Origin: Candidatus Cloacimonadota bacterium
Lineage (GTDB): Bacteria > Cloacimonadota > Cloacimonadia > JGIOTU-2
Assembly (NCBI GenBank): GCA_049903315.1
Contig: JBNGBT010000008.1
Coordinates: 62,330-126,329, forward strand
Length of the DNA: 64,000 bases
Direction: 5' to 3'
Shown: positions 45,726-63,879 of the stretch, in pieces
Position numbering within the stretch: position 1 is the stretch's first letter
Layout of the letters: each line of letters opens with the position of its first letter
Position numbers and translations under genes: made by a program
The notes under the pieces: model-generated
What the model was told of the DNA's origin: nothing
Database searches by the model: none
What the model saw: the letters and a program-made list of their open reading frames with translations, nothing else

Positions 45726-45738
45726 TGTAACTCCTAAA

Positions 45739-46320: not shown

Positions 46321-46322
46321 AG

Positions 46323-48769: not shown

Positions 48770-48838
48770 CACAAGACTCATTCTCCGACTTTACAGAAAA
48801 AAAGGTGAGATTGTCATGCTTCATTTTGATAAAACCAC

Positions 48839-48855
48839 TGCACCAATTTTGTGCA
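48839..48855. promoter_or_regulatory. Candidate upstream activator site for a sigma-54 enhancer-binding protein
   Basis: Dyad TGCACCAATTTTGTGCA about 110 nt upstream of the -24 element; close to the NtrC-type TGCAC-N7-GTGCA pattern. Confidence 0.55.
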
Positions 48856-48964
48856 TATATTAGCTGAAGAAATAAATTTTAAAACAGCGTGAAATAATAT
48901 CACACCACATAACGTACGAATTAGAGGGAGATTATGGTAAATGTGGGGAAGATCAACATTTTTT

Positions 48965-48980
48965 TGGCACGATTTTCGCA
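48965..48980 (+). promoter_or_regulatory. Sigma-54 (-24/-12) promoter
   Basis: TGGCACGATTTTCGCA with exact GG-N10-GC spacing, about 40 nt before the RBS and ATG at 49022; the operon encodes a sigma-54 activator. Confidence 0.8.
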
Positions 48981-49021
48981 TAGAGAAGGAGTGCGAATAG
49001 AAATGAAAACAAGGAGTTAAC

Positions 49022-49483
49022 ATGAAAAAGTTAATCGCACTCGCAAGTATGATGATACTCAGCGTAAGTATCGTGGTAGCAGCCACAGCAAGTGGTTATG
49101 TAACAGATATGGAAACCGGTGTTGGAATCGAAAGTGCAATCGTAAAATTCCATTTTATTGATGGTGAATGCCCTGACGGTGGCGGCAATGGCGGTGGCAA
49201 TGGTGGTGGAAACGGTAATAATGGCAATAACGGTGGCGGTAATGGCGGTCATGGTCTTAACATATATGATGCCGTAACCGATGCAGACGGATATTATACA
49301 ATCGTTGATCTTCCAGAAGGAAACTACGAAGCCCGCGCATTAAAACCTCATACCTATATGCCTTCTCTTCTTGAAGAGATAGTTATTGATGAAAATGGCG
49401 TAGTCGTCGACTTTGCTCTTGAACCATGCAGTGGTAGCGGTTCAGCAAAGCAACTCAAAATCAGACACCTCATCAACTTTTAG
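49022..49483 (+). CDS. Secreted carboxypeptidase-regulatory-like beta-sandwich protein with a Gly/Asn-rich insert
   Basis: Signal peptide; SGYVTDMETG..IESAIV and TDADGYYTIVDLPEGNY flank GGGNGGGNGGGNGNNGNNGGGNGGH; AAGGAG RBS. Confidence 0.7.
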   Translation: MKKLIALASMMILSVSIVVAATASGYVTDMETGVGIESAIVKFHFIDGECPDGGGNGGGNGGGNGNNGNNGGGNGGHGLNIYDAVTDADGYYTIVDLPEGNYEARALKPHTYMPSLLEEIVIDENGVVVDFALEPCSGSGSAKQLKIRHLINF

Positions 49484-49549
49484 TGCTGCGCACATGAGAA
49501 ATATTGACGGGATTTCGGTCCCGTCGTATTTTCTCTATAAGGAGTAATA

Positions 49550-49903
49550 ATGAAATCAATAATTTTTGCCGGTTTATTTGTATTTTTTTTAGCTGTGTCT
49601 TTGCATGCAGCAGATTCAACAGAAGCACCGGCATCTGGCGATGAGATCACCATCGAAGAGAAAAGTGAAGGAGCTGAGTTTGACTTCTTTATAGATAAAG
49701 ACGGTGATGGCATCTGTGATAATAGAACCCTGAGATATAAAGGAACATTTTCCAAGCATCTGAACATCCGTCATTACAGAATGATCTCTTATAAATATGA
49801 CTATCAGTTCAGATGCGAGTTCGGCTCATCAGGCGGATCAAAAAAAGGAGACGGTGGAAACGGACAACACGGAGGAAACCCGGGACATCATGGAGGTCAA
49901 TAG
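49550..49903 (+). CDS. Small secreted protein with a DxDGDGICD motif and Gly/His-rich tail
   Basis: Signal peptide LHA-A; FFIDKDGDGICDNR; tail GGNGQHGGNPGHHGGQ; AAGGAG RBS. Confidence 0.7.
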   Translation: MKSIIFAGLFVFFLAVSLHAADSTEAPASGDEITIEEKSEGAEFDFFIDKDGDGICDNRTLRYKGTFSKHLNIRHYRMISYKYDYQFRCEFGSSGGSKKGDGGNGQHGGNPGHHGGQ

Positions 49904-49906
49904 TTG

Positions 49907-50869
49907 ATGCCTGTCTGGCTCGGTCTGATTCTTATCGTATTTCCATCACTCCTCTTTGGACAAAACTCCGAAGGGGATATGTATTTTCATGGCTCATCAC
50001 AAAAAGGCATTGATGGATTATCTGAAAATAAGGGAATACTGGGCGGAAGCTTCAAGTATTTTTCTGATTCCTATTATCTTGATATAGCTCCGCAGTTAGC
50101 TGTACACTTTGACGGTTCCGATATTGAAGGAAATATTTCTTCGCTTGGAGAAATTTTCTTTCCGTGGGGAGGAACAAGTGCCCATATCTATTATCAAAAT
50201 ACGGCAGATTCACTGAACGATCAATTCAAGGCAACTGGAGAATTATATCGCACGATAGAAAAACAGCGGTATATCGTTGAATATGGGGATATTTTTGATT
50301 TTACATATTATCCTGATTACAGGAATTTCACGCATATTGATAATGCCCTCTACCTTTTGTATAAAAGATTTTATAGAACATTTGCATTGCACACATATTT
50401 TGATTTCACCTATCGATACTTCAATGATATGTCTGATCACTCAATTGGGCTGACAAAAGCATCGGCAGAGGTATACTTCTCACGCGGAATAAAGAGAAAT
50501 ATCGGACTTAAGTACGGAATGTATGTCAGTAAAAATATTACTTCAACGGATTCACTCATCTATGTGAACTCGGAACTGTACGATTCTTTTGCATATGATG
50601 TATATAAAATTTATTTGGGGAGCACGATATATTTAAATGACCTACTTGTAAAACCTGATATCTCAGTACAACATAAGATATACAATAATTCTTCCGCAGA
50701 AAGCTCTTATTCCGAAACGGGAATGGGATTATCTTTTTATGCGGATTATCCAATCAGTAATAATATTTTATTATATTCGAACAGCAATATGTTTGTTTCG
50801 TTTGATTCGGCATTAAGTATATCTACATACGACACAAGTCTTGGAATACGATATCTATTTAAGAAATAA
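49907..50869 (+). CDS. Putative outer-membrane beta-barrel protein
   Basis: Signal peptide; Tyr/Phe-rich alternating strands; C-terminal SLGIRYLF. Confidence 0.5.
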   Translation: MPVWLGLILIVFPSLLFGQNSEGDMYFHGSSQKGIDGLSENKGILGGSFKYFSDSYYLDIAPQLAVHFDGSDIEGNISSLGEIFFPWGGTSAHIYYQNTADSLNDQFKATGELYRTIEKQRYIVEYGDIFDFTYYPDYRNFTHIDNALYLLYKRFYRTFALHTYFDFTYRYFNDMSDHSIGLTKASAEVYFSRGIKRNIGLKYGMYVSKNITSTDSLIYVNSELYDSFAYDVYKIYLGSTIYLNDLLVKPDISVQHKIYNNSSAESSYSETGMGLSFYADYPISNNILLYSNSNMFVSFDSALSISTYDTSLGIRYLFKK

Positions 50870-50870
50870 T

Positions 50871-52526
50871 ATGAATATAAGCCCGGTAGAAAAAAAAGAA
50901 AAGAGCATCAAATACCTGCTCGTCATCATATCAATCATTATTGTGTTATTGTGGGCTTCTCTCTATTACGTACAGAACAATAATATTAAAACGGTTTATA
51001 AAACGATAGAATTGAACGGGCGGCTGTATCTCGAACTTGTAAATGATATCATTCAAAGCAATCTCTATTCTCAGGATGTGATAGAAACACTTTTCTTTGA
51101 ACGCGCAGAAATGCTCATCCATCTTGTTATGGAGGACCACACAGCACAGATTAGTGATTCACTCAGGCAGAAGATGCTCATACATCATATCTGCGTCATT
51201 GATACGCTTGGGAATCTTGTATTTTCTTTGCCGGAGGGTTGCTCAAAAGACGTATCCATAGACCAGCTTCCAAAAACAGAAGAATTTGTTCTTTTAGAAA
51301 TTGAGGATAATCCTGATGCAGTGTATATTGTCTCTTTTCGAAATGAGCAATGGTTTGTTGCATCAATAAAAAAGAGAGATTATTTCTCGCTTCTTAAGCC
51401 GATTCAGCTTTCTACAATTTTTTCTCAACTGAGCCAACAAATATCATCTGTGAGTGAATCAATAGAAACACTACCGCAGATTCGATATCTCGTCATTCAG
51501 GATGCAAAGGGTATAATTGCAGCTACTGAGAATGTGCGTCGAATGCAGAGAATATCTTCAGACGAATTTTTAAGCTCTCATCTGGCAAATGAAACCATTG
51601 CTTCTCGCGAGACTTCATTTGAAAATATAAAAGTGCTCGAGATCTTACGCCCATTCTCTCTCGAAGAAACCGAGCCCGTTCTTCTCCGTCTTGGGCTTTC
51701 AATAGATAAAATAGAATCTTTGAAGAGAAATCGCGTTCTCTTGTTTATTATTTATTCGATAATCTTTGCGGGAGTTTTAATTCTGGAATTCCTCTTTTAT
51801 CGTAATCATATTAAGATACACAGGATCATGGAATCCCTTCAAAAAGCCGAGTATATGGCAGGTATCGGAGAACTTGGCAGAGAGGTTGCTCACGAAATCA
51901 AAAACCCGCTCAATGCGATTTCAATGATACTTCAGAGAATCCGGGCAGAGTTTGTTCCCGAAAAAGACAGCGAGTTGAAAAAATGGCTTTCCGTATCGTT
52001 TGATGAAATAGAACGCCTCAACGGCATTGTAGAAAGATTCCTTGATTATTCGCGCTCGATCACATTGAAAATTAAGAAAGTTAATGTCGGTGATTTTATT
52101 GGGAAAATTGCTGATATTTTTCAACAGGAATATAAGGATACTAATCTGCAAATCCAGGTGGATGGCAATAAAAGCATTGTCTGGAATTTTGATATTGATG
52201 CACTCACTCAGGTTATGATAAATGTTATAAAGAATTCTGTCGAATCATTTTCACCCGAACAAGAACACAGGAACATCCGCATAGAATATTTTGAGAAAGA
52301 CAAAGAAATGACAATCAAGATCGTTGATAACGGCAGCGGGATTTCCGTAGATAAACTCAATAAAGTATGGGATCTATATTTCAGCACAAAAGAGAGCGGA
52401 AACGGATTGGGATTGCCTATTTCCAAGAAAATAATAAAAGCCCATCAGGGGGATGTATTTATCAAGAGCAGTTCAAAAAATGGAACTGAGATAATAATAA
52501 AGCTGCCAAAATCGGAGTTAGAGTGA
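50871..52526 (+). CDS. Membrane sensor histidine kinase (ZraS/AtoS/NtrB-like)
   Basis: Two TM helices around a periplasmic domain; VAHEIKNPL (H box), NVIKNS, DNGSGI, FSTKESGNGLGL. Confidence 0.92.
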   Translation: MNISPVEKKEKSIKYLLVIISIIIVLLWASLYYVQNNNIKTVYKTIELNGRLYLELVNDIIQSNLYSQDVIETLFFERAEMLIHLVMEDHTAQISDSLRQKMLIHHICVIDTLGNLVFSLPEGCSKDVSIDQLPKTEEFVLLEIEDNPDAVYIVSFRNEQWFVASIKKRDYFSLLKPIQLSTIFSQLSQQISSVSESIETLPQIRYLVIQDAKGIIAATENVRRMQRISSDEFLSSHLANETIASRETSFENIKVLEILRPFSLEETEPVLLRLGLSIDKIESLKRNRVLLFIIYSIIFAGVLILEFLFYRNHIKIHRIMESLQKAEYMAGIGELGREVAHEIKNPLNAISMILQRIRAEFVPEKDSELKKWLSVSFDEIERLNGIVERFLDYSRSITLKIKKVNVGDFIGKIADIFQQEYKDTNLQIQVDGNKSIVWNFDIDALTQVMINVIKNSVESFSPEQEHRNIRIEYFEKDKEMTIKIVDNGSGISVDKLNKVWDLYFSTKESGNGLGLPISKKIIKAHQGDVFIKSSSKNGTEIIIKLPKSELE

Positions 52527-53857
52527 AAATATTAATTATTGAAGACGACGCATCTCAAAGAGAGATATTAGCAGATTTTCTCAAGTCCCAAAAACACGAG
52601 ATCTTCACCGCTTCAAATGGTGAAGAAGGAATAAAAATATTTTATAAACACCCAGTTGATGTGGTGATATCTGATTATCGAATGCCGGGACTGAGTGGAA
52701 AAGAGGTTCTGGAAAAGATATTAAAGATAAATCCATTCACGGCAGTCATTATCATCACTGCATACAGCTCGGTAGATAATGCTGTCGAGTTGCTCAAACT
52801 TGGCGCGTTTGATTATATTGAAAAACCGATCAATCTCGAATTGCTCTTGAGTAAAATAAAAAATGCACAGAATTACATACAGGTTGAGAAGGAAAGTAAA
52901 AAGGTTCAAGATATTATTATCGACGAAGAACTTCCAGTCACTTTTATTGGAGACAGCCCAAAGATAAATGAAATCCTCAGCATTGTAAAAAGAGTCGCAC
53001 ATGTGGACGCTTCAGTCCTCATCTCCGGAGAAAGCGGAACCGGGAAAGAGGTCATAGCAGATATAATTCACCACCTCAGCCCCAGGAAAAAATATAAAAT
53101 GATAAAAGTAAACTGCTCAGCAATACCCGAAACACTTCTCGAGAGTGAGCTTTTCGGGCACGTGAAAGGGGCTTTTACAGGTTCGATACGCGACAGAAAA
53201 GGGCGTTTTGAAGAAGCGAATGGAGGTACACTTTTTCTCGATGAGATCGGGGATATTGCTCCGTCAATACAGGTAAAACTTCTCCGGACGCTTCAAACAA
53301 TGGAGTTTGAACCCGTGGGGAGCTCGATGACCAAAAAAGTGAATGTGCGCATTATTGCTGCATCAAATAAGAACATTCAAACAGAAGTGCAGTTAGGACA
53401 TTTTCGGGAAGATCTGTATTACAGGCTGAATGTCATACCAATTCATCTTCCCCCATTGCGTGAAAGAAAACAGGATATAAAAAAGCTGGTGGAACATTTT
53501 TTGAGCATATATTCCGCTGATGAAGACATAACTTTTTCCCACGATGCCCTTATGAAGCTGGTGAATTATCCCTGGGAAGGGAATATCAGGCAGCTGAAAA
53601 ATGTGATACAGAGAACGATCGCCCTAGCCAGAAATAACATAATCCAGATCGAAGAGCTTCCTGAGGAGATACGAGAATATCATCTTTTCAACAATGAAGA
53701 AAACGCAAAAACAATTGCCGATGTTGAACGAACTCACATCACGAAAATATTAAAAGAATGCGAATTCAACCAGGTGAAGGCAGCGGAGATGCTTGGGATT
53801 CATCGTAATACGTTATCAAGAAAAATCAAAGAATATAATATTGATATTCCAAAATAA
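52523..53857 (+). CDS. Sigma-54-dependent response regulator (NtrC/ZraR family)
   Basis: Receiver IEDD...DYRMP; GESGTGKE, ESELFGHVKGAFTGS, FLDEIG, FREDLYYRLNV, WEGNIRQL; Fis-type HTH. Confidence 0.95.
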   Translation: MKILIIEDDASQREILADFLKSQKHEIFTASNGEEGIKIFYKHPVDVVISDYRMPGLSGKEVLEKILKINPFTAVIIITAYSSVDNAVELLKLGAFDYIEKPINLELLLSKIKNAQNYIQVEKESKKVQDIIIDEELPVTFIGDSPKINEILSIVKRVAHVDASVLISGESGTGKEVIADIIHHLSPRKKYKMIKVNCSAIPETLLESELFGHVKGAFTGSIRDRKGRFEEANGGTLFLDEIGDIAPSIQVKLLRTLQTMEFEPVGSSMTKKVNVRIIAASNKNIQTEVQLGHFREDLYYRLNVIPIHLPPLRERKQDIKKLVEHFLSIYSADEDITFSHDALMKLVNYPWEGNIRQLKNVIQRTIALARNNIIQIEELPEEIREYHLFNNEENAKTIADVERTHITKILKECEFNQVKAAEMLGIHRNTLSRKIKEYNIDIPK

Positions 53858-53865
53858 ATATTGTC

Positions 53866-54651
53866 ATGGATAAGTTAAGAGTAAGAAGAATACTACAACT
53901 GGTTTCGCTTGGAATATCAGTGTCTTTATTTGTTCTACTAATCGAAGGTACACTTCCTGTTGCGCATGAGTTCTGCCCCTATGCATCGGTGTGTTTCGGT
54001 GTATGGAAAATTGGAGCAAAATTCGCACCGTTTATTTTTCCAGTAGCAATAGTAATTGGTGCTGCGATTGCACTCAGCACACTATTTCTCGGAAGATGGT
54101 TTTGTGGATATATTTGTCCCATTGGAACGATTCAGGAGCTTGTATTCTCAACAAGGAAATCCAAGAAAAAATTTGTGCAATTAATCCCTTACAAAGTCCA
54201 TAAACATTTGAATATTGTTAAATATGTTGTATTTTTTTTCACCGCAATAACTGCGTTTCTCGCAGCTCAATTTATCTACATGAAATTCTGCCCAATTCTT
54301 GCAATCGCTCATATTCAAAATATTACTATTGTTGGAATTCTTGTGCTTGCGATAATTCTATTTGCAGGTTTTTTTATCGAAAGATTCTGGTGCAGATACC
54401 TATGTCCTTATGCAGCGCTTATGAATATCATCCAGAAAATTGCCGATATGATAGGCATTAAAAGATATAAAATATTCCGGAACATTCACACCAGTATTAA
54501 CTGTTTTAATTGCCTGAATTACTGCCCGATGAACATTGACATCGGGTATAATGAAAAAATTTCTGACATTAATTGTATTAAGTGTTTGAGTTGCGTGCGC
54601 CGATGCTCAAAAACTGATAAAGAAAAAAGTAAATGTATTTATAGAGATTGA
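53866..54651 (+). CDS. NapH/MauN-like membrane 4Fe-4S protein
   Basis: About four TM helices; GRWFCGYICPIG and RFWCRYLCPY CxxxCP motifs; C-terminal SINCFNCLNYCP and CIKCLSCVRRC. Confidence 0.85.
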   Translation: MDKLRVRRILQLVSLGISVSLFVLLIEGTLPVAHEFCPYASVCFGVWKIGAKFAPFIFPVAIVIGAAIALSTLFLGRWFCGYICPIGTIQELVFSTRKSKKKFVQLIPYKVHKHLNIVKYVVFFFTAITAFLAAQFIYMKFCPILAIAHIQNITIVGILVLAIILFAGFFIERFWCRYLCPYAALMNIIQKIADMIGIKRYKIFRNIHTSINCFNCLNYCPMNIDIGYNEKISDINCIKCLSCVRRCSKTDKEKSKCIYRD

Positions 54652-54660
54652 GGAAAAAAA

Positions 54661-55167
54661 ATGAAAAAAATATATTTGATGATACTTATTGTTTTGCTTG
54701 CTGTTCCCCAGATAGTATTTGCGCAGGACACGACCAAAGTGTATAAGGTTGATAAATCAAAATGTATCGGCTGTACTATTTGCGTAAAAGATGGAAAATG
54801 TCCAACCGATGCAATAGAGATGAAGAATGGAAAAGCAGTTATTGATCCGACTAAATGCATAGACTGCGGTATATGCGCAATGCAGTGTCCTGTTGCAGCG
54901 ATTCAAGAAGTTGAGTATGTAGATAGCAGCGCAATAGTTGTGGAAGAAATTGTAGTTGAAGCTGAAGATACAAGTGCGATTGAGCAGTCGTCATATACTG
55001 TTGATGCAGAGGGCTGTATTGGCTGTGCGATCTGCGTTCGGAAATGTCCTGTTGGAGCGATCAGCATGAAGGACAGCAAAGCAGTAATAGATACGGAGAA
55101 ATGCATAAATTGTGGAATTTGTGCAAATGCATGCCCCGTGAAGGCAATACACAAAGCGGATGAGTAG
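54661..55167 (+). CDS. Exported polyferredoxin (two 2x[4Fe-4S] domains)
   Basis: Sec-type signal MKKIYLMILIVLLAVPQIVFA-Q; four Cys motifs CIGCTIC..CP, CIDCGICAMQCP, CIGCAICVRKCP, CINCGICANACP; acidic linker. Confidence 0.85.
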   Translation: MKKIYLMILIVLLAVPQIVFAQDTTKVYKVDKSKCIGCTICVKDGKCPTDAIEMKNGKAVIDPTKCIDCGICAMQCPVAAIQEVEYVDSSAIVVEEIVVEAEDTSAIEQSSYTVDAEGCIGCAICVRKCPVGAISMKDSKAVIDTEKCINCGICANACPVKAIHKADE

Positions 55168-58100
55168 AAGAAAAAAATACACACTCTACTTTCTTGCTGC
55201 TGTTTCTTTGTTATTCATTCTTTTACACTGCTCGGATAAGACCAAAAAGCTTTTTATCTATGATGGTGATGTCCGGATTGAATATTCACGGTGTACAGGA
55301 TGCTATGAATGCATTGATGAGTTCGAATGTCCGCAGAATGCGATAATAAAGGACAACAAGCATATCACCGCATATATTGATCCTGATAAGTGTATTCAAT
55401 GTATGAAGTGCATAGATGTCTTTTCCTGTAAAGATAATGCACTCACAGTTCAAAAAGATATAATATCTCCAGGTGCAATTAAAGACTTTTATACATGCTC
55501 GGATTCTGCCGGACGGCTTGAGATACAGTTCACTGCCCCAGGGGATGATTCAACTGATGGCAGGGCATATAATTATTCACTACACCTCACGTCTAACAAA
55601 AATACTATTACTTATGATTTTGATGTACCAGTCCCCTCAGAAGCGAACACAATGGAATATTGGCGGATTGAAGGTCTTCCTCTTAATGAAATGATAACAG
55701 TAAAACTTGATGCGAGCGATGAAGTTGGGAATATGTCCGGCATAATACAGGCAACTCTTACCATCGCTAATATTGATACAATCCCACCTGCCCAGATAAC
55801 CGATCTGTTTTCTGTGCCGCAACTTTCAACAATAGAGTTGCAATGGACATCTCCGGGTGATGATGGCCATGAGGGCATGGCGGATTCATATGAACTGCGA
55901 AAAGCAGAAGTTTCTATTACCGAGGATAATTGGGATGACGCTGAGGTTTTAGAGTATGCCCCAATCCCCGAAGAACCATACACACTTCAATCCTATGTAG
56001 TAGAAGATAGTCTTGTTCAGGACAGAATATATTATTTTGCGATTAAAACTACTGATGATTCAGGGAATATATCAGAGATTTCAAACTGTGCGTATAATGA
56101 AATAATCGGCGATACGATCCCGCCAGCCAATATCACTGATATCAAGGTTACTTCAACCGGTTTTCAAACAGCTCACATCCGATGGACTGCTCCCGGCGAT
56201 GACAATGCAGAGGGTGCTTCTTCATATTATATAATCAAGATTTCAGAAGATGAGATAACGGATGACAACTGGAATTCAATTGAACCGTACGACAATACCA
56301 TCATTCCCCAATCAGCAGGCGGAACAGAGAACTTTCTCTTCGACAACCTTGCAGGAGATACAGAATATTATATCGGAATTAAGGCAGTTGATGAGGTTGA
56401 AAACGTTTCAGGACTTTCAAATGTTGCGCAAGCTGTGACTCAAGAAGTTCCAGACAACACACCCCCGAATCCTATCGCGGATCTCACCACGGTAGAAACA
56501 GAGACAGAAATTACACTGTCATGGACTGCTCCTGGAGATGATGGGACCACGGGAATAGCTTCATTCTACGTTTTGAAATATAGTGAGAATCTAATCACGG
56601 CAGGTAACTGGTCTTCAACCCAAACACTTCCCAATGCTCCTATTCCAGAAGAATCCGGCACAGCACAGAATTATATAGTGAGTAACGTCGAACCGGGCAT
56701 AGAATACTATTTTGCTATCCGTTCATATGATGATGCATTGAATATTTCGAATCTGTCAAATGTAGTAGCAGGTTCTCTTTTGCAAGATATAATTCCACCT
56801 TCTGATATATCAGATCTGGACGCACAATCAACAGAAACCGAGATCATCTTACAGTGGACTGCTCCCGGCGATGATGGGAATATCGGAACTGCGGACTCCT
56901 ATGATTTACGATATTCAACAGAGTTCATTTCTCAGGGAAATTGGCAGAATGCTACAGCGATCAGCGATGTGGCCGATCCATTTATATCTGGTACACTCCA
57001 ATCATACATTTTTGATTATGGTTCCATTGGAACAGACTATTTCTTTTCAATAAAAGCTAAAGATGATAATGGCAACGAAGCGGGATTATCCAATATTGCC
57101 TCAGGACAAATTCTTGGAGATATTACCCCGCCTTCAGCCGTACTGGATCTGGCATCATTTGCAACAGAGGAAATGATAACTCTCATGTGGACTGCACCCG
57201 GCGATGATGGAGATAACGGCACAGCTGAATTTTATGATGTCAGATATAACACGGAGCATATTGATGATACAAATTGGAATGATTCCTATCAGTGCGATAA
57301 TGAGCCAGTACCAATGCCTGCGGGTGCAGAACAGCAATATGAAATCAGCGGATTGCTTCAGGGTGAAGTGTACTATTTTGGGATGAAAAGTGCAGATGAG
57401 AATAATAATTATTCACTCATTTCAAATATTATTTCTGCTTCTTTATTATCCGATACAACACCACCCGTAGCGATTGCAGATCTTATAGTTCATAATTTCT
57501 CTTCACATTCGATCCAGATACGTTGGACTGCAGTTGGTGATGATGAATTTGAGGGAACTGCAGATTCTTACGTGATTAAGGTCTATGACGGGGAAATAAA
57601 TGAAAGCAATTGGGCAAGCATTCCGGAATATACCCAGAATTTAACTCCGCAACAATCCGGAATGCAAGAAATGCTGCTTCTCTCACAACTGCAGCCGGAA
57701 ACCGAGTATTATGTCGGACTGAAAGTACTCGACGATGCACAGAATATTTCCGGCTTATCAAACATTGTGAATGCAACCACAACTGCAACCCCAGACACAG
57801 TATCGCCGGCTCAAGTAATTGATTTGTCTGCACTTGCAACAGAGATCGATATTACACTCTCATGGACAGCGCCGGGGGATGATGGGAATGAAGGGCTAGC
57901 TGCATTTTATGAAATAAGAGAAAATAGCGTTATGATTACTCCTGATAATTGGGAGTCTTCTGAGCTATTGACAAATATTCCTTTGCCTGCGGAATCCGGA
58001 ACAGTACAATCTTATATCTTAGATGATGCAGAGCCCGGAATACAGTATTTCTTTGCTCTTAAAACCTATGATGACGCATCCAATGTTTCTGTGATTTCAA

Positions 58101-60322
58101 ATAGTGCTTCAGCATTACTTTTACAGGACACAACACCTCCTTCGCAAATCGCAGACCTGTCTGCGGAAGCAACAGAGATTGATATTACACTTTCATGGAC
58201 AGCACCAGGTGATGATGGAAATGTGGGATTGGCATCATATTATGAGATCAGAAAAAATAATGCAGAGATAACTTCTGCTAATTGGAATTCCTACGAACTG
58301 TTACCAGACATTCCTATTCCTGAAGACCCCGGCACATTTCAGTCATACACTTTTTCGGAACCCGTGCCAGACGAGGTATATTATTTTGGCATTAAGACTT
58401 TCGATGATATGGAAAATGTCTCAGATCTTTCAAATATTGTGTCAGGAACTCTGCTGCAGGATACGGAACCTCCTTCAGATATAACCGACCTGCTTGCAGA
58501 ATCATACGAAACAGAGATAATCCTTCAGTGGACTGCTTCCGGTGATGATGGTGATCTTGGATTGGCTTCCTATTATCAGATCAGGAGAAATAGTGTGGAG
58601 ATAACTCTTACCAATTGGAATTCATCCCCACTTTTGCCCGATATTCCACAACCTGCTGACCCGGGCACGATCCAGTCCTGTGCTTTTACGGAAGCAGAGC
58701 CCGGAACGGTGTATTATTTTGCCATAAAAACTTTCGATGATATGGGAAATGTATCCGGTCTTTCAAATATTGTGTCGGCAACTCTACTGCAGGACACAGA
58801 GCCGCCGTCAGATATAACCGACCTGCATGCGGGATCCTACGAAACTGAGATCGTCCTGCAGTGGACAGCATCCGGTGATGATGGCATGGTTGGAACTGCG
58901 GAATCCTATGATATGAGATATAATTTTGAAGAAATAAATGAAAATAACTGGGATTATGCATTATCAATAAGCGATGTAGCGGCACCATCCCCTTCTGGCA
59001 CTACCGAATCATATATTTTTACTGGCGGACCAGTCGGACTTGAGCTTTTCTTCGCTATCAAAGCTTTAGATGAAAATGGCAATGAATCCGGGTTGTCCAA
59101 CGTAGCATCCGGTCAGATCCTTGGTGATATCACACCTCCTTCTGCCATCAATAATCTTACTATATCAAATGTTACTTTTGAGAGCTTAATGCTCTCATGG
59201 ACTTCAGTTGGCGATGACGGGCTTTCTGGTGTTGCATCGGGTTATACAATAAAAATTCATACCGAAGAAATTACTGAGCAGAACTGGAATTCGATTACGG
59301 AATATGCTCAAAATATGATCCCTCAGCCCTCGGGTTCAATGGAAATGATCCTGATAGAGAATCTCTTATCGGAAACTGAATATTTTGCAGCGATCAAAGC
59401 TTTTGACGAAAATCAAAACTACTCGGATATCTCGAATGTTCCCAGCACTGTAACTCCTGAAGAGCCGGATATTATACCTCCTGATGCAATTAACGATCTT
59501 GATAGCAATGCGAGTGAAACAACGATTACATTGAGCTGGACTGCACCGGGCGACGACGGAAATACCGGAACAGCTGCATATTATGAAATTCGCAGATCCG
59601 AAGAACTCATCACAGAAGTAAACTGGTCTGCTGCAACACCTCTGACGAATCCACCTTCTCCTCAGCCTGCAGGAACACAACAGTCATATGAGGTGAACGG
59701 TCTCACAGGTGGTGTAGTGTATTATTTTGCTATAAAAACATTTGATGATGTAATGAATGTATCGGAATTATCAAATGTTGTTTTTGATATGCTCGAAGAA
59801 GATACGACGCCTCCATCACAGATAACCGATCTTATGGTTTTGGCAGGATACGCTTCTAATAATTCAACAATATCAATCCATTGGACAGCACCGGGTGATG
59901 ACGGCGCATTGGGAACTGCTGATCATTATGAAATCCGTTATGCAACATTTCAGATCAGTGAACTCAACTGGAATCTAGCGCAGGTATTTTTCAATCCACC
60001 CGCTCCGCAAACTGCAGGAACAATTCAAACATGTAATGTTACAGGTTTAAATGATGCGACAATTTACTACTTTGCCATCAAAGCATATGACGATAATAAT
60101 AATGCGGGGATCGCATCCAATTCTCCAGGTGGAAAAATAGTGTATCAAATCAGTACCGGTCCCTGTAACGGATGTGGAAACTGCGTGAATCATTGTCCGG
60201 AAAATGCGATCACTGATCATGGATCATATGCAACCATTGATCCTGATAAATGTGAAGCATGTGGTGACTGTGTCGGTTGGTGTCCGAGAAATGCAATTCA
60301 TTTGTATGTGGTGAGTTATTAA
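55160..60322 (+). CDS. Giant putative lipoprotein: ferredoxin domain + 14 FN3-like repeats + ferredoxin domain
   Basis: Signal ending LLHC; N-terminal CTGCYEC..CP / CIQCMKC..C; 14 repeats D-x-x-PP..I.DL...WTAPGDD...Y...YYFAIK..D; C-terminal CNGCGNCVNHCP / CEACGDCVGWCP. Confidence 0.85.
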   Translation: MSRRKKYTLYFLAAVSLLFILLHCSDKTKKLFIYDGDVRIEYSRCTGCYECIDEFECPQNAIIKDNKHITAYIDPDKCIQCMKCIDVFSCKDNALTVQKDIISPGAIKDFYTCSDSAGRLEIQFTAPGDDSTDGRAYNYSLHLTSNKNTITYDFDVPVPSEANTMEYWRIEGLPLNEMITVKLDASDEVGNMSGIIQATLTIANIDTIPPAQITDLFSVPQLSTIELQWTSPGDDGHEGMADSYELRKAEVSITEDNWDDAEVLEYAPIPEEPYTLQSYVVEDSLVQDRIYYFAIKTTDDSGNISEISNCAYNEIIGDTIPPANITDIKVTSTGFQTAHIRWTAPGDDNAEGASSYYIIKISEDEITDDNWNSIEPYDNTIIPQSAGGTENFLFDNLAGDTEYYIGIKAVDEVENVSGLSNVAQAVTQEVPDNTPPNPIADLTTVETETEITLSWTAPGDDGTTGIASFYVLKYSENLITAGNWSSTQTLPNAPIPEESGTAQNYIVSNVEPGIEYYFAIRSYDDALNISNLSNVVAGSLLQDIIPPSDISDLDAQSTETEIILQWTAPGDDGNIGTADSYDLRYSTEFISQGNWQNATAISDVADPFISGTLQSYIFDYGSIGTDYFFSIKAKDDNGNEAGLSNIASGQILGDITPPSAVLDLASFATEEMITLMWTAPGDDGDNGTAEFYDVRYNTEHIDDTNWNDSYQCDNEPVPMPAGAEQQYEISGLLQGEVYYFGMKSADENNNYSLISNIISASLLSDTTPPVAIADLIVHNFSSHSIQIRWTAVGDDEFEGTADSYVIKVYDGEINESNWASIPEYTQNLTPQQSGMQEMLLLSQLQPETEYYVGLKVLDDAQNISGLSNIVNATTTATPDTVSPAQVIDLSALATEIDITLSWTAPGDDGNEGLAAFYEIRENSVMITPDNWESSELLTNIPLPAESGTVQSYILDDAEPGIQYFFALKTYDDASNVSVISNSASALLLQDTTPPSQIADLSAEATEIDITLSWTAPGDDGNVGLASYYEIRKNNAEITSANWNSYELLPDIPIPEDPGTFQSYTFSEPVPDEVYYFGIKTFDDMENVSDLSNIVSGTLLQDTEPPSDITDLLAESYETEIILQWTASGDDGDLGLASYYQIRRNSVEITLTNWNSSPLLPDIPQPADPGTIQSCAFTEAEPGTVYYFAIKTFDDMGNVSGLSNIVSATLLQDTEPPSDITDLHAGSYETEIVLQWTASGDDGMVGTAESYDMRYNFEEINENNWDYALSISDVAAPSPSGTTESYIFTGGPVGLELFFAIKALDENGNESGLSNVASGQILGDITPPSAINNLTISNVTFESLMLSWTSVGDDGLSGVASGYTIKIHTEEITEQNWNSITEYAQNMIPQPSGSMEMILIENLLSETEYFAAIKAFDENQNYSDISNVPSTVTPEEPDIIPPDAINDLDSNASETTITLSWTAPGDDGNTGTAAYYEIRRSEELITEVNWSAATPLTNPPSPQPAGTQQSYEVNGLTGGVVYYFAIKTFDDVMNVSELSNVVFDMLEEDTTPPSQITDLMVLAGYASNNSTISIHWTAPGDDGALGTADHYEIRYATFQISELNWNLAQVFFNPPAPQTAGTIQTCNVTGLNDATIYYFAIKAYDDNNNAGIASNSPGGKIVYQISTGPCNGCGNCVNHCPENAITDHGSYATIDPDKCEACGDCVGWCPRNAIHLYVVSY
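55450..60135 (+). repeat. Tandem array of 14 FN3-like coding repeats (about 330-345 nt each)
   Basis: W/F-T-A/S-P/V/S-GDD motif counted 14 times; the junctions near 58430 and 58760 remain highly similar at DNA level. Confidence 0.85.
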
Positions 60323-60568
60323 ATGAAAAAAAAGAGAACATCGTACATAGTCATTATTGCAGTTTTGATAATTATGCTTGTGCTCATCGCTGCGACCGAA
60401 TCAAAACCTATTGTATGGAAAGAGAACTGCACCGGGTGTGGAGATTGTGCAAAATATTGCCCCGTGAATGCGATAACGATAATAAACGGGAAGGCAGTCA
60501 TCGATCACGAAAAGTGTATAGATTGCAAGTTGTGTGTCACCACCTGCACCTTTGGAGCCCTTAAGTAG
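60323..60568 (+). CDS. Small 2x[4Fe-4S] ferredoxin with an N-terminal signal or anchor helix
   Basis: MKKKRTSYIVIIAVLIIMLVLIAA; CTGCGDCAKYCP, CIDCKLCVTTC. Confidence 0.82.
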   Translation: MKKKRTSYIVIIAVLIIMLVLIAATESKPIVWKENCTGCGDCAKYCPVNAITIINGKAVIDHEKCIDCKLCVTTCTFGALK

Positions 60569-60569
60569 G

Positions 60570-60815
60570 ATGAAAAAATTCACTCGAATTTTACTATTCA
60601 TCTTTTGTGTGCTGATACTTTTTTGGGGATGCACAAAATTTGCAGGCATAAAATTCACTATTGATGAATCGAGCTGCATAGGATGCGGAAGGTGCTATGA
60701 CGCATGCCCTCATAATGCTATATTTTATAGCGAAGGAAAGGCAGTTATTATTCAGAGCAAATGCAAGCAGTGCGGATTGTGCGTGCCTGTCTGCCCGAAT
60801 GATGCGATCCATTAA
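60570..60815 (+). CDS. Small lipoprotein 2x[4Fe-4S] ferredoxin
   Basis: MKKFTRILLFIFCVLILFWG-C lipobox-like; CIGCGRCYDACP, CKQCGLCVPVCP; ATG at 60570 preferred. Confidence 0.82.
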   Translation: MKKFTRILLFIFCVLILFWGCTKFAGIKFTIDESSCIGCGRCYDACPHNAIFYSEGKAVIIQSKCKQCGLCVPVCPNDAIH

Positions 60816-60820
60816 GTATT

Positions 60821-61984
60821 ATGAAGAAATATTTCTTTTTTATCATATTATTACTCAACGCCAATATACTTTTGGGTGAGGGGCAGCTTTCTTATGAAGC
60901 TTCCTATGATGAAAATGAAGGTATCAGCCACAGGTTCGCATCGTATGTGACATCTCTTACGCAGAAGTGGCTCATCGAGAACATAACATACAGCTCCCTG
61001 CACAGTGAAGATGATAAAAAGAAGAATAAAGATGATGCACAATATTATCTTTTAAACTATATCAGAAATAAGGTTATAGCCACTCATTTTTCAGATTCTT
61101 ACCTTATTTCAGCATATCTTTCTGGGGAATATGATTTTGGAAGAAATATCAAAACTAATATTGCTGGTTTGCCGTATCAGTACACACTTGAAAACGGACT
61201 GACAACTGGATTGAGAGCAAATTACAAATTCTCAAACTTCGAAACAGATATGCGTCTGGACTATGACACGAAAAATTACAATTATGTAACACTCGACAGT
61301 AAAGAAGGACATCATACCGAAGCAAATCTACAAGGAAAGATCAAAACATCATTGTCATTATCAAAATCACTGAAAGCATACATCGAAGCTTATCATTACA
61401 ATGATTTGAATGAAAGCAGCAAGTTCGATTTTACCCGGTTCTATGCAGGATTATCTTTTGATAAGAAACTCAATTATATCCATTACCTCAGTATCGATGC
61501 CGCAGGTGGATATTCTGATATTGATTCTCTATTTCCCTATACATTTCGAACTGAAGCACGGGTGACAAGCAAGTTCATTCATGAGTGGATCGCAGTTGCA
61601 AAATTAAGCTACAATATCTGGACAAATAATGATATAGATGGAATATATTTTGGCAATACTTACGCAGAATTTCTTACTCAAAAGAATATTTCATTCACGC
61701 CAAATAATGAAGTGAGTAAATTCCAGATGTCTGCATCGCACTATTATCTGAGCAATCAAACTCTCTTGAAGACCAAGCTGGAATTCTATATAAATAAACT
61801 TATGTTATCATTATCGTACGGACGATACATCGGCAGGAATTTGCCATATGATAATAAGTTCATCGGCAAGATCGCATATCCGATTTTTCAAAATGTTTGC
61901 CTGTCCTATAGCTATCACTATCAGGACAATGTGGTAATTCCGGGAGTAAATGCTCATTCCTGCGGGATTGATGTGCTTTTTTAA
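60821..61984 (+). CDS. Putative outer-membrane beta-barrel protein
   Basis: Signal peptide; many aromatic-terminated amphipathic strands; ends CGIDVLF with a terminal Phe. Confidence 0.55.
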   Translation: MKKYFFFIILLLNANILLGEGQLSYEASYDENEGISHRFASYVTSLTQKWLIENITYSSLHSEDDKKKNKDDAQYYLLNYIRNKVIATHFSDSYLISAYLSGEYDFGRNIKTNIAGLPYQYTLENGLTTGLRANYKFSNFETDMRLDYDTKNYNYVTLDSKEGHHTEANLQGKIKTSLSLSKSLKAYIEAYHYNDLNESSKFDFTRFYAGLSFDKKLNYIHYLSIDAAGGYSDIDSLFPYTFRTEARVTSKFIHEWIAVAKLSYNIWTNNDIDGIYFGNTYAEFLTQKNISFTPNNEVSKFQMSASHYYLSNQTLLKTKLEFYINKLMLSLSYGRYIGRNLPYDNKFIGKIAYPIFQNVCLSYSYHYQDNVVIPGVNAHSCGIDVLF

Positions 61985-61987
61985 ATC

Positions 61988-62986
61988 ATGCTGAAAACGC
62001 TTGCAGAAGGATTCATGCTTGGATTGGCCACAGGTTCTGTGTGTCTTGTGACATGCACTCCGATCTATCTTCCTTATCTCTTATCTGAAGAACGTAAGCT
62101 AGCAAAAAGCTTGGGCATAGTCGCAGAAATTTCTGCTGGCAGGTTTTTTTCATATATCGCTTTTGGAGCAATTGCCGGATATGTCGGTGCAAATATTTCT
62201 AATATCAACAGAACACTTTTCACATCTATCGCATATATTTTACTCTCAATTTATCTTGTACTTTCTGCAGTGAGGGCAAGGCAACATGATAAAAAATGCC
62301 ATGTTTCAAAAATTGCAAGAATAACCAAAAGCGCATTTATTCTCGGCATTCTTACGGGCATAAATTTCTGTCCTGCATTTCTGATCGCACTTTCCAAGGC
62401 AGTAAATCTTGGGGGAGTAGTAAGTGGAATGATGCTTTTCCTCGGATTTTTTGGAGGTACCACCCTCTATCTTATTCCGATAGCATTTCTCGGGCAGCTT
62501 TCACGGATTCAGATAATGAAAAAGATAGGGCAAATCGCTTCACTGATCATTGCAGCATGGTTTATCTTCAGTGGAATTAGAGGGTTAGCCACTCTCAAAA
62601 AGCAGCGCAGTCACGTAGAGGTTCAGCTTGAAGAAAATGAAAGATTGGTAGATGTCTTTGCGCCTGATCAACAGATTTTGATCATATCCTCGGATGAAAA
62701 TGCCACATATTTTTCCGCATTGAGAGATTCCTTTACTGCCTGGAATATGCACGAGATTATTTATTTGCAGAATAATTCAGAATATGTGGACTCGCTCATG
62801 AAATATGAAAAGGGCATTGTCTTTTGTGACAATGAAATTGAATGCGAAAATCTTCGGTCCATCCTTCATAATTTTGATGTGTTTTATATTGAGAAAAACT
62901 ATCCGATAAGCCGGATACTCACATTCCTCAATAAGTTTACCTTCAAAACAGAGACAACTCTCCAGTGGGAGTTCAAAGAGCAGTAA
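61988..62986 (+). CDS. DsbD_2/TauE-like membrane protein with an extra C-terminal soluble domain
   Basis: GFMLGLATGSVCLVTCTP, GRFFSYIAFGAIAG, GILTGINFCPAF, FFGGTT; about six TM helices plus about 125-aa tail. Confidence 0.72.
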   Translation: MLKTLAEGFMLGLATGSVCLVTCTPIYLPYLLSEERKLAKSLGIVAEISAGRFFSYIAFGAIAGYVGANISNINRTLFTSIAYILLSIYLVLSAVRARQHDKKCHVSKIARITKSAFILGILTGINFCPAFLIALSKAVNLGGVVSGMMLFLGFFGGTTLYLIPIAFLGQLSRIQIMKKIGQIASLIIAAWFIFSGIRGLATLKKQRSHVEVQLEENERLVDVFAPDQQILIISSDENATYFSALRDSFTAWNMHEIIYLQNNSEYVDSLMKYEKGIVFCDNEIECENLRSILHNFDVFYIEKNYPISRILTFLNKFTFKTETTLQWEFKEQ

Positions 62987-63793
62987 TTACAGATACTGCA
63001 TCATTTCTTTATCTTTCACCTGACCGTAAAGCTCGATATAGGGCTTTACCGGGCTTGAGATAATCTTCGGAAAAAGAACTTCTTCGATCTGGAAGAAACC
63101 AGCGGATTGTGACATTTCTATTAAAATTTTAATAGGTTTTTTATCTCCCCGGATTATGTTCACTTTCTGGATAGAGCTTGCAGAATACTTATGAATATCC
63201 CCTACTCGTGGCTGTTGAGAGAGTAGGGTGGTGATGCGGGAACGCCCCTTTTCCATATCGCACCCATCGCCGATAAGTACGAGTCCTGCTTCAAGGGAAT
63301 AAATTTTTTCTGTAGCCATGTGTCCGAAAATGCCTTCGATGATCATTGCTTTCAGAATAGTTTTTTTCGGGATATTGTCTTTATAGATCGCATCGAGCAT
63401 CCGCCGAATAATCGGTTCTGCAAAAATAATTCCGATGATCTCATGATGGTCGCGGGTTGCAGTCATGCCGACGTCATGAAGAAGAGATGCTGCCAGAACG
63501 CATACTTTACTGTCCTGATATGAGCCCATGTGTTCTGATTCAAGATTGAACTTTATGCCTGCATTATGCAGGAGGTCAAACATGATGAGAGCATTCAGAG
63601 CTGCAGTTCTCATATGAACCGGTCCATGGTCATTATATCCAAGGCGCTTAATAGAAACAGTATTTGCAAAATCCTGAAGAGTCAGCACCTCTACATCATT
63701 AAAAATAAAGTTTGCTATCTCAGTAGATTTCCCCTCAAGATGGGTCAAGATCGATTTCTCAAGCGCTATTTGCTTACGTGTTTTCTTAATCAT
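62987..63793 (-). CDS. HD-domain metal-dependent phosphohydrolase
   Basis: YNDHGPVH, LLHDVGM, GDGCDMEKGRSR. Confidence 0.85.
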   Translation of the reverse strand: MIKKTRKQIALEKSILTHLEGKSTEIANFIFNDVEVLTLQDFANTVSIKRLGYNDHGPVHMRTAALNALIMFDLLHNAGIKFNLESEHMGSYQDSKVCVLAASLLHDVGMTATRDHHEIIGIIFAEPIIRRMLDAIYKDNIPKKTILKAMIIEGIFGHMATEKIYSLEAGLVLIGDGCDMEKGRSRITTLLSQQPRVGDIHKYSASSIQKVNIIRGDKKPIKILIEMSQSAGFFQIEEVLFPKIISSPVKPYIELYGQVKDKEMMQYL

Positions 63794-63879
63794 AATAAGT
63801 TTTCATTTCCATTGTTATATTTCATAAATAGTGTAAAAGTATTACTATTCATGTCAATAATTATCTAAAGATCTCTATT

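Follow-up and report, generated by a model that had tools for sequence, protein, structure and literature searches.

The DNA analyzed here, a 64,000-nt stretch from a Candidatus Cloacimonadota bacterium (the window), contains three adjacent genes, g9, g10 and g11, whose products, judging from structural models, probably, though by no means certainly, form a porin-ferredoxin electron conduit, analogous to the porin-cytochrome systems rather than a member of them. Two 2[4Fe-4S] ferredoxins stacked in the lumen of a barrel would provide a four-cluster path across the outer membrane. If correct, this would be a haem-free electron exit through the outer membrane, not described before: to our knowledge, known trans-outer-membrane conduits use haem or copper carriers, and a literature search found no description of a porin-ferredoxin system.

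Gene cluster and regulatory module

The triad belongs to a run of 12 co-oriented open reading frames at 49022-62986, separated from g1 to g12 by 66, 0, 1, -4, 8, 9, -8, 0, 1, 5 and 3 nt (values that depend on the gene starts chosen in this analysis). The features are as follows.

48839..48855, no strand: near-palindrome TGCACCAATTTTGTGCA, found by sequence, kept in L013 and assigned to the g1-g5 module
48964..48980, + strand: sigma-54 (-24/-12) promoter-like site TTGGCACGATTTTCGCA, the sole pattern match in the window
49022..49483, + strand: g1, secreted Gly-rich protein with a weak carboxypeptidase-regulatory-like domain (Pfam, below cut-off)
49550..49903, + strand: g2, small secreted protein with a DxDGDGICD motif; homologues in stand-alone modules
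49904..50869, + strand: g3, probable outer-membrane beta-barrel of the accessory module (language-model features; stays with the kinase and activator)
50871..52526, + strand: g4, two-TM sensor histidine kinase (HisKA, HATPase_c)
52523..53857, + strand: g5, sigma-54-dependent response regulator (Response_reg, Sigma54_activat, HTH_8), 8 nt upstream of g6
53866..54651, + strand: g6, NapH-like 4-TM inner-membrane Fe-S protein (Fer4_5; two CxxxCP, two cluster motifs)
54661..55167, + strand: g7, Sec-type signal peptide and four ferredoxin motifs; kept with g6 in deletion forms
55160..60322, + strand: g8, lipoprotein of 1720 aa (LLHC) whose 14 acidic Fn3-type repeats are flanked by two ferredoxin motifs on either side
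60323..60568, + strand: g9 (core), 2[4Fe-4S]-type ferredoxin with a cleavable signal; eight Cys invariant in 25/25
60570..60815, + strand: g10 (core), lipoprotein 2[4Fe-4S]-type ferredoxin (FWGC); lipobox Cys invariant in 25/25
60821..61984, + strand: g11 (core), plugless 20-strand outer-membrane beta-barrel of an unnamed family (AF2 model)
61988..62986, + strand: g12, DsbD_2-family six-helix inner-membrane protein with a C-terminal alpha/beta domain (Pfam; model)

A sequence-only reading of this DNA had described closely packed, co-oriented genes behind a sigma-54 site, and the reading frames, gaps and pattern search confirm that description. Sites of the TTGGCACGATTTTCGCA type arose in 0.025% of 20,000 shuffled versions of the 252-nt intergenic region; the sequence is identical in L013, L097, L259 and L265 and one base off in L044, and RpoN is present in the genome. 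Upstream, TGCACCAATTTTGTGCA, which we take to resemble NtrC-type sites, is a candidate enhancer site for the sigma-54 activator. The kinase, activator, NapH-like and DsbD_2-like identities proposed in that reading were matched by Pfam (HisKA/HATPase, sigma-54 activator, Fer4_5 of the NapH-like type, Fer4, fn3 and DsbD_2 domains). Its count of 12 ferredoxin-type Cys motifs in four proteins with export signals also holds for g7-g10, comprising nine canonical CxxCxxCxxxC motifs and three with a longer spacer, as does the absence of CxxCH (0 of 12 proteins). Single contigs of three public DNA runs, which may be the source samples, cover positions 48000-63947 with zero differences, so that a mis-assembly of the repeat-rich g8 is ruled out.

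What found no support is the proposal of a single 12-gene system under sigma-54 control. An orthologue of g4 occurs in 9 of 151 Cloacimonadota genomes, compared with 75 of 151 for the g11 barrel, which indicates that the regulation and the second barrel, g3, are local. Moreover, g1 travels with g2, g3, kinase and activator, the five-gene module has unrelated neighbours in other genomes, and g6-g12 occur without it in close relatives. By sequence comparison, g1-g3 with the kinase and activator thus constitute a module unrelated to the ferredoxin cassette; it would have been inserted locally and may drive transcription here. Of the two barrels originally proposed, g11 folds as one of the outer-membrane type, and g3, in the unrelated module, is barrel-like by features only: these lie near barrel clusters of a protein atlas (0.95-0.96), below the tool's recognition threshold. 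We class g3 as a probable outer-membrane beta-barrel outside the cassette. No Pfam or NCBIfam match was found for g2. A ZraSR- or AtoSC-type identity of g4/g5 was rejected, as the two-component proteins all scored under the curated cut-offs of the ZraS/ZraR and AtoS/AtoC equivalogs.

Conservation of the triad and export of its ferredoxins

Comparison of sequences indicates a unit that covers only part of the operon, with g9, g10 and g11 as its core. Conserved synteny extends over three phyla: the g11 profile matches 75 of 151 Cloacimonadota genomes, g9-g10 precede the barrel in all 47 loci inspected, and the g9-g10-g11 order recurs in Fermentibacterota and Chitinivibrionia. At some loci g8-g11 are deleted jointly while g6-g7 remain, and the cassette has decayed repeatedly within the genus of the window.

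Both g9 and g10 have two CxxCxxCxxxC motifs per domain of 57-61 residues, the 2[4Fe-4S] clostridial-type pattern, and all eight cysteines as well as non-ligand ferredoxin residues are kept across the three phyla. A basic n-region with a hydrophobic core precedes the domain in 25/25 g9 and 24/25 g10 sequences, whereas the RnfB of the genome has no basic n-region (present in 49 of 50 g9/g10 sequences). Seven of 19 Chitinivibrionia g9 orthologues bear a twin-arginine signal, with TatC in 4 of 5 tested genomes of this kind. These export signals, the invariant lipobox cysteine and the Tat and T9SS variants support the extracytoplasmic location that had been claimed for the ferredoxins. If the N-termini were instead uncleaved anchors, with cytoplasmic ferredoxins as in RnfB and the barrel a bystander, no new biogenesis route would be needed; given the same signals and variants, the strict barrel linkage and the complex model described below, we regard this as very improbable.

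As a rule, Fe-S proteins leave the cytoplasm folded via Tat. TatC was not found in G000 or in any of the 75 barrel-positive Cloacimonadota genomes, and we know of no route for loading [4Fe-4S] into Sec-exported proteins. Ferredoxins with Sec or lipoprotein signals in Tat-less genomes thus challenge this rule, and the g9 orthologues, some with Tat and others with Sec signals, provide a natural comparison. The lack of Tat and of a known extracytoplasmic cluster assembly would fit domains that keep the ferredoxin fold but use their cysteines for Zn, heavy metals or disulfides, as structural plugs or for sequestration, in line with the metal or redox sensing and sequestration system that the sequence-only reading had raised as its alternative. 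We consider this quite improbable, since the eight cysteines and the non-ligand residues are conserved across three phyla, twin-arginine orthologues exist, and the loss of one motif cysteine in g6 is paired with the gain of a C-terminal one.

Barrel fold and modelled complex

The AF2 model of g11 is a 20-strand barrel (pLDDT 90.1) with no plug domain; its turns are short at one end and its loops long at the other. Its fold matches are outer-membrane barrels, which supports the proposed outer-membrane assignment; TonB-dependent receptor barrels are the best, and MtrB is at Foldseek rank 3 (Z 15.2, rmsd 6.7, 339 aligned residues). No Pfam match, PDB sequence match or sequence match to MtrB was found. 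Modelling ferredoxins with the barrel, as had been suggested, placed g9 in the g11 lumen against g10, with an ipSAE of 0.84 versus 0.00 for the best control; 116 of 157 solved pairs and 2 of 215 mismatched ones reach the ipSAE mark, figures that apply only roughly here. Runs agree in at least 96% of contacts, with a partner pLDDT of 87. The four clusters in the model were supplied as input rather than predicted. The modelled contacts alternate along 12 of the 20 strands, all 0-7 residues from the short-turn side. In the model, g9 sits in the half of the barrel that faces the periplasm and contacts g10, with the first Cys motif of each at the interface; from residue depth, we infer that g10 would lie on the outer side. 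The accessible part of PMC5080379 describes K-(D/E)2 or Q-A-(D/E)2 directly after the lipidated cysteine as the Bacteroidetes surface lipoprotein (LES) signal. The acidic K-(D/E)2 signal was not found after the g10 lipobox, which fits poorly with an outward position, although a Bacteroidetes signal may not hold in Cloacimonadota.

Taken together, the outcomes that could be examined among those said at the outset to count against the proposal came out in its favour: the ferredoxins have export signals, g11 is of outer-membrane type and the synteny is conserved. The TonB-dependent receptor matches could also point to acquisition or delivery of Fe, S or clusters: apo-ferredoxins would trap Fe and sulfide outside, or clusters or metal would pass between compartments by way of the barrel and g12, and the ferredoxin fold would be cargo or chelator, not a wire. 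This would agree with the sulfite-exporter/TauE-like database annotation of g12, with Fur-like and FeoB-like genes (labels by reading) after the barrel in L167, and with Sec export, which implies loading outside. We nevertheless judge it unlikely, as the fold resemblance is of a general kind, with MtrB on a par (Z 15.2 versus 17.6), g11 has no plug, the Tat-type g9 orthologues imply pre-loaded export, and the NapH-like partners imply electron flow.

Partner proteins

Around the triad, g6, g7, g8 and g12 are, by their sequence distribution, frequent but separable partners. The g6 protein, a candidate inner-membrane hub, has an orthologue in 119 of 151 genomes; its presence in 48 of 76 genomes without a barrel match indicates barrel-independent uses, and 10 of 29 g6 loci lack an adjacent ferredoxin. 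Loop His/Cys residues are conserved in the alignment; here one motif cysteine is Ser and an extra C-terminal cysteine is present, a loss and a gain that go together in the alignment. Together with g7, it mirrors NapH and its four-cluster periplasmic partner (NapGH/MauMN): g6 has all the NapH features (four TM helices, two CxxxCP, two cytoplasmic cluster motifs), with scores below the cut-offs of the NCBIfam NapH models. The g7 product is a candidate periplasmic carrier in a NapG-like position; unlike NapG, it has a Sec-type signal with no twin-arginine motif, in a Tat-less genome, and no terminal reductase is linked to it in the cluster. The hub at Chitinivibrionia loci joins NapH- and NapG-type parts in one fusion protein that has a twin-arginine motif inside it, the fused form represented by the Sec-Tat polyferredoxin (PFD), which, as far as the available text of PMC5449189 goes, was shown to be Tat-exported.

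The g8 lipoprotein is a candidate surface component. Its homologues span 595-1720 aa; among 14 of them, all have Asp at +3 and six have DD, which is not the exact LES motif as given in the portion of the Bacteroidetes source at hand. In other lineages, the g8 slot holds a ferredoxin with a T9SS-type sorting domain; in L025 this domain scores above the cut-off and the genome has SprA. Several minimal loci have no surface ferredoxin beside the triad. A role of g8 as a wire by itself was discarded because 14 cofactor-free Fn3 repeats part its two ferredoxin pairs; they would serve as a tether.

In g12, C19, C23, C104 and C128 are invariant in 53/53 sequences. The gene is present in 49 of 75 barrel genomes and was not found in 26; Pfam DsbD_2 was missing in 4 of 5 tested genomes of the latter group. 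Like CcdA/DsbD thiol carriers and DsbD_2 (PF13386, labelled 'TauE/SafE'), it has six helices with CxP and FCP cysteines; it differs in having four invariant cysteines, not two, an added alpha/beta domain and no periplasmic thioredoxin in the cluster. Neither a PF02683 match nor a clear PDB match was found. It may reduce or metal-load exported apoproteins or act as a second membrane carrier, and would not always be needed. Its four cysteines, a thioredoxin gene (without signal peptide) that follows it in L011 and L012 only, and weak receiver-like matches of its C-terminal domain (Z 8-9) suggest another role for the cassette: an envelope redox buffer or sensor, in which the Fe-S proteins and barrel reduce oxidants, disulfides or polysulfides, or report outside redox, rather than serve catabolic disposal. 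The upstream two-component system and the easy loss of the cassette would fit as well. The two-component module is, however, unlinked in most genomes, the core triad has no conserved output domain, and g6-g7 are preceded by a 2-oxoacid:ferredoxin oxidoreductase beta-like gene in 4 of 5 genomes with the minimal triad, which points to catabolism; we therefore consider a buffer or sensor fairly unlikely.

Proposed electron path and known systems

For a porin-ferredoxin conduit, outward flow is favoured. Low-potential fermentation electrons would pass from the cytoplasmic clusters of g6 across the inner membrane and through periplasmic g7 to g9 and g10 in the barrel, from which a surface ferredoxin (g8 or T9SS-type secreted) could deliver them to partner cells, minerals, sulfur species or humics. 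MqnA was not found in the genome search, and the only UbiA match sits among lipid-synthesis-like genes and looks like a lipid enzyme, so that g6 may have no quinol to use. More tentatively, with rather less confidence than in the conduit itself, roughly half of Cloacimonadota, along with further fermenting anaerobes of the FCB group, could have such an all-Fe-S, haem-free path from cytoplasm to surface, and this could be the machinery so far missing in them for direct interspecies or extracellular electron transfer. Since the Cloacimonadota carriers have no Tat, their [4Fe-4S] clusters would then be assembled or inserted outside the cytoplasm.

Porin-cytochrome conduits (Shewanella MtrCAB, PDB 6R2Q; PioAB/MtoAB; Geobacter Pcc; PCC3/PCC4, PMC5566968) share the layout of a redox protein in a plugless barrel whose gene is the next one, along with partners in the periplasm, at the surface and in the inner membrane; the seating in the lumen is likewise shared, here in the model only. 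Membership in this class, which is based on a multihaem CxxCH carrier, is excluded: the carriers here are ferredoxin domains, no open reading frame of at least 100 aa with two CxxCH was found in the genome, and a cytochrome c assembly protein (PF01578) was not found in the three Cloacimonadota genomes tested (G000, G044, G054). Compared with MtrB, g11 has 20 strands, and its fold match is unspecific among many outer-membrane barrels. Flavinylation-linked systems (PMC8238504) share NapH-like (PF12801) and DsbD-type proteins that feed cytochrome-free extracytosolic carriers; here, an outer-membrane barrel with ferredoxins takes their place, none of the 12 proteins has an [ST]GA[ST] motif, and Pfam found no FMN-binding or ApbE gene in the cluster. 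In Fus of Pectobacterium, according to the available excerpts of PMC6042079 and PMC6793856, a ferredoxin also enters an outer-membrane barrel, but it is a host protein imported as an iron source, whereas here the cell's own ferredoxins, with export signals, are encoded beside a plugless barrel.

For Cloacimonadota, direct interspecies electron transfer has been proposed from pili, as stated in the accessible part of PMC13082233, and the triad cluster would add a concrete, small and expressible candidate. Genomes are screened for extracellular electron transfer by counting CxxCH motifs; a ferredoxin-filled barrel would go unnoticed in this way, and the electroactive organisms would come to include fermenters that have no cytochromes. 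Digesters and sediments commonly harbour Cloacimonadota; the host of the window is an anaerobic marine bacterium.

Gene cluster and sigma-54-type site

All 12 co-oriented genes that the sequence-only reading had described (g1 to g12) were found again, with successive intergenic gaps of 66, 0, 1, -4, 8, 9, -8, 0, 1, 5 and 3 nt. The cluster and the site in front of it are:

48964-48980: sigma-54-type site, the sole pattern match within the window
49022-62986 (+): gene cluster g1-g12

Such a site arose by chance in 0.025% of shuffles of intergenic DNA, and a Pfam search showed that RpoN is encoded in the genome, which is 96% complete. Ferredoxin motifs number four each in g7 and g8 and two each in g9 and g10, and a motif scan detected no CxxCH in any of the 12 proteins, upholding the claim that the cluster lacks a heme motif. 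Contigs from three public DNA runs cover the region with zero differences, an agreement that checks the assembly only, since these runs may be the source samples. None of the public sequencing runs listed holds RNA.

Conservation of the g9-g10-g11 triad

The ferredoxin with a signal peptide (g9), the ferredoxin lipoprotein (g10) and the predicted outer-membrane barrel (g11) form the core of a real, widespread and apparently undescribed envelope module, which we lean towards regarding as an electron conduit. A barrel profile of 39 rows matched 75 of the 151 genomes sampled from the phylum, some of the matches being partial (e.g., a remnant in G007), and g9 and g10 lie directly upstream of the barrel in all 47 further loci inspected (27 strong and 20 weak barrel-profile matches). 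The NapH-like inner-membrane protein g6 occurs in 119/151 genomes (71/75 barrel-positive, 48/76 others) and the DsbD_2-family protein g12 in 60/151, 49 of them barrel-positive and 11 without a barrel match; it is absent from 26/75 barrel genomes. These genome counts are descriptions rather than tests, as kin are not independent.

Many minimal loci consist of the triad without an adjacent g8, g7 or g12. Losses of g8-g11 or g8-g12 within the genus show several different breakpoints, and the joint loss of g8-g11 points to one unit, yet a dispensable one. In a genome of the same genus with g9-g12 otherwise intact (G009), g8 is interrupted by an in-frame stop just downstream of its signal peptide (L009:8390-8620). 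Across its homologues, the length of g8 ranges from 595 to 1720 aa and the number of Fn3 repeats varies.

Outside Cloacimonadota, the g9 profile matched 48/61 genomes in the phylum of a Fermentibacteraceae locus (L052). In the 18 loci listed from this phylum, g9 is accompanied by one or two exported ferredoxins and a barrel-like ORF of ~400 aa that the g11 profile did not confirm; g10 is present in 16 of them. Within the class to which L038 (Chitinivibrionales) belongs, g10 was found in 14/81 genomes and g12 in 20/81, including all 14; among 14 wider Chitinivibrionia loci, 11 have a barrel-profile match, with g12 in 10 and a NapH-type gene behind the barrel in 9.

Two further arrangements were seen. 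A Bacteroidota MAG (L071:1662-5517) combines a NapH-like gene, a barrel-like gene without a family match and a twin-arginine/lipobox polyferredoxin with 10 consecutive motifs, and may represent the same design in an independent version. In the database record P0159 (6 members), g9 and g10 are joined into a single chain of 160 aa that retains the internal signal peptide, which looks like read-through or an error; this record was left out of the evidence.

Barrel model and predicted complex

AlphaFold2 predicted g11, from 31 homologues, as a 20-strand barrel without a plug (pLDDT 90.1, pTM 0.81). Its turns measure 2-5 residues on one side and its loops 3-18 on the other, which in the model is the usual outer-membrane pattern. 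Fold searches returned TonB-dependent receptor barrels and MtrB, none specific, and no Pfam, NCBIfam or PDB sequence match was obtained for g11 (best E when the profiles of g11 and g12 were searched against PDB sequences, 0.017). No relatives of g11 were present in the viral contigs searched. The barrel likeness of g3 comes from language-model features only. One Chitinivibrionia barrel (L222:1736-3187) bears an N-terminal DAVSSAT stretch that resembles a flavinylation site.

The complex was modelled with the barrel, g10 and four 4Fe-4S clusters as input and g9 scored as the partner. The score was 0.84, compared with 0.00 for the best of three controls and 0.00 when the barrel was replaced; runs shared at least 96% of contacts, with a partner pLDDT of 87. 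The mark was reached by 116/157 solved complexes and 2/215 mismatched pairs, counts that hold only roughly here because custom alignments and a ligand were used. The model thus supports binding of g9 in the barrel together with g10. On the barrel, the positions in contact with g9 form an alternating pattern on 12 of the 20 strands and lie within 0-7 residues of the side with the short turns, which would place g9 in the lumen's periplasmic half. Contacts between g9 and g10 are tightest at residues 33-39 and 77 of each protein, i.e., at their first Cys motifs. The g9 residues in contact with g10 also touch the deepest barrel positions, from which we infer that g10 sits further out than g9; like this position, all cluster distances are inferred. 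A geometric estimate gives a C-alpha radius of ~18 A for 20 strands. A PDB sequence search found no solved complex of the porin-ferredoxin kind.

Evidence for export of the ferredoxin domains

Export signals were assessed by script and alignment. A basic n-region followed by a hydrophobic core is present in 25/25 g9 and 24/25 g10 sequences, whereas the RnfB anchor of the genome has no basic n-region; it is highly improbable that these hydrophobic segments are anchors of cytoplasmic domains. The lipobox Cys is invariant in g10 (25/25) and present in all 14 full N-termini found for the Fn3-ferredoxin lipoprotein g8.

Twin-arginine signals occur on 7 of 19 Chitinivibrionia g9 orthologues, and TatC is present in 4 of 5 tested genomes with such a g9. 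As Tat exports folded, cofactor-loaded proteins, these orthologues are probably in their holo form when exported. The g8 slot of some Cloacimonadota is occupied by a ferredoxin to which a T9SS-type sorting domain is fused: in L025 this domain matches TIGR04183 with 46.9 bits (cut-off 23), the L125 protein scores above the cut-off for FlgD_ig and below it for Por_Secre_tail, and 10 further loci were flagged by pattern only. SprA was found in 5/5 tested genomes. Both variants lend independent support to export.

TatC was detected in only 3/151 Cloacimonadota genomes, none of them barrel-positive, and was not found in two single-contig genomes. In the Tat-less barrel genomes, the domains would have to be exported unfolded and loaded outside, use an unknown route or bind a non-cluster ligand. 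The last option corresponds to domains that hold another metal or form disulfides, a reading that we consider distinctly unlikely, with the twin-arginine orthologues and the ligand exchange in g6 (see below) on the side of Fe-S clusters. The idea of g12 as a Tat substitute was weakened by its presence in Tat-positive Chitinivibrionia with twin-arginine g9 and its absence from 26/75 Tat-less barrel genomes.

The window's own genome, which is Tat-less, encodes a further candidate Sec-exported Fe-S protein (G000:C3:8781-9887 (-); 368 aa, Sec-type signal, two ferredoxin motifs), presumably DUF362-like. At the end of g8 (window ~60299-60322), most Cloacimonadota homologues keep a hydrophobic strand that finishes with an aromatic residue and could be a docking or sorting element. 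The surface signal of Bacteroidetes, as described in the accessible text of PMC5080379, is lacking in g10.

Inner-membrane partners and possible electron flow

The layout of g6 is that of NapH. In the alignment, sequences that have lost its first motif Cys show one at the C-terminal end instead, which suggests a preserved ligand set. In Chitinivibrionia, the hub position is taken by a NapH-NapG-type fusion of 500 aa that contains an internal twin-arginine motif; the accessible part of PMC5449189 describes NapH fused to NapG, a type shown to be Tat-exported. Together, g6 and the four-motif ferredoxin g7 look like a split, Sec-signal form of this fusion. An adjacent ferredoxin gene was present in 19 of 29 called loci among the best g6 matches.

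In 4 of 5 tested minimal-triad genomes, g6-g7 lie elsewhere, directly behind a gene whose best matches, below the cut-off, are 2-oxoacid:ferredoxin oxidoreductase beta subunits, a neighbourhood that favours outward disposal of fermentative electrons. A quinol donor for g6 is doubtful, because MqnA was not found when searched for and the single UbiA-family match (G000:C33:214910-217400 (-)) is flanked by genes interpreted as encoding a GGGP synthase and a polyprenyl synthase, by reading a neighbourhood of archaeal-type ether-lipid synthesis. Such genes have been reported for Cloacimonadota.

Several features count against a conduit: the non-conducting Fn3 stretch of g8, the losses of g8-g11, the partner-poor minimal loci and the lack of a surface signal on g10. 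Conduction along g8 itself was rejected, as its 14 acidic Fn3 repeats carry no cofactor motifs. Instead of conducting, the module could handle iron or clusters, which appears unlikely.

The g12 protein comprises six helices and an alpha/beta tail, and four of its Cys are invariant (53/53 sequences). Its model gave zero Foldseek matches at E<=0.001 and, with VIA-align, common arrangements only (best Z 8.9; CcdA not among the matches listed); no plasmid match was found. Distant g12 relatives without the C-terminal domain (L130-L136, L139, L142) immediately follow a NapH-like membrane protein of 387 aa, and their surroundings gave no barrel match. A second NapH-like protein of the window's genome (G000:C1:22144-23307 (+); 387 aa, N-terminal membrane segment) is unlinked to the cassette.

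The accessory module g1-g5

An orthologue of the kinase g4 occurs in just 9/151 genomes; g1-g5 are followed by unrelated genes in G011, G143, G159 and G113, and g6 onwards occurs without them in G009, L098 and L101. Since the kinase is rare and both parts occur apart, g1-g5 represent a module of their own that was inserted ahead of g6 in part of the genus. Co-transcription with g6 across the 8-nt gap is plausible in the window. Sigma-54 control was rejected as a conserved trait, the site preceding the cassette only where g1-g5 are present (~60 loci scanned). The main idea of the sequence-only reading, an Fe-S conduit, stands, but neither the boundaries nor the regulation that it proposed hold up: both the second barrel and the control by sigma-54 are local to g1-g5. 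A sensing role, or a redox buffer in the envelope, is a fairly unlikely function for the core. The DxDGDGICD motif of the secreted protein g2 (window 49550-49903) resembles Cys-rich N-terminal repeats of a Fermentibacteraceae NapH-like protein (L052:13702-15270).

Relation to known systems

Porin-cytochrome conduits share a similar layout, but the cluster differs in having no haem. Parts are shared with NapGH, although g6-g7 come without a Tat signal or reductase, and with the flavinylation-linked NapH-like/DsbD systems in the accessible text of PMC8238504, although the cluster has no flavin site. In the portions available of PMC5566968 and PMC9900912, Fe-S proteins are mentioned only in helper roles for cytochrome conduits, in the periplasm or the inner membrane, or as ferredoxins of the cytoplasm. 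The accessible part of a phylum survey (10.1101/2021.10.08.463351) does not mention such a cluster. PMC13082233, in its accessible text, proposes direct electron transfer via pili, and that main text gave no match for cytochrome, 4Fe-4S or outer membrane. We found no published description of a porin-ferredoxin system, most subscription literature lying outside the search.

Other features of the window

6686-7417 (+): F-type ATP synthase c-subunit-like ORF (label by reading), 243 aa, ~3x as long as usual, which points to a triplicated proteolipid
29413-31672 (+): Rrf2-like regulator, cysteine desulfurase-like and NifU-like genes (labels by reading), together a set for cytoplasmic Fe-S assembly, at a distance of 17 kb from the cassette
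45225-46841 (-): ECF sigma factor, zinc-finger anti-sigma and small secreted protein, oriented divergently to the acyl-CoA synthetase that precedes g1, genus-conserved
63914-64000: multi-copy repeat with which many of the genome's contigs end, probably a mobile-element end
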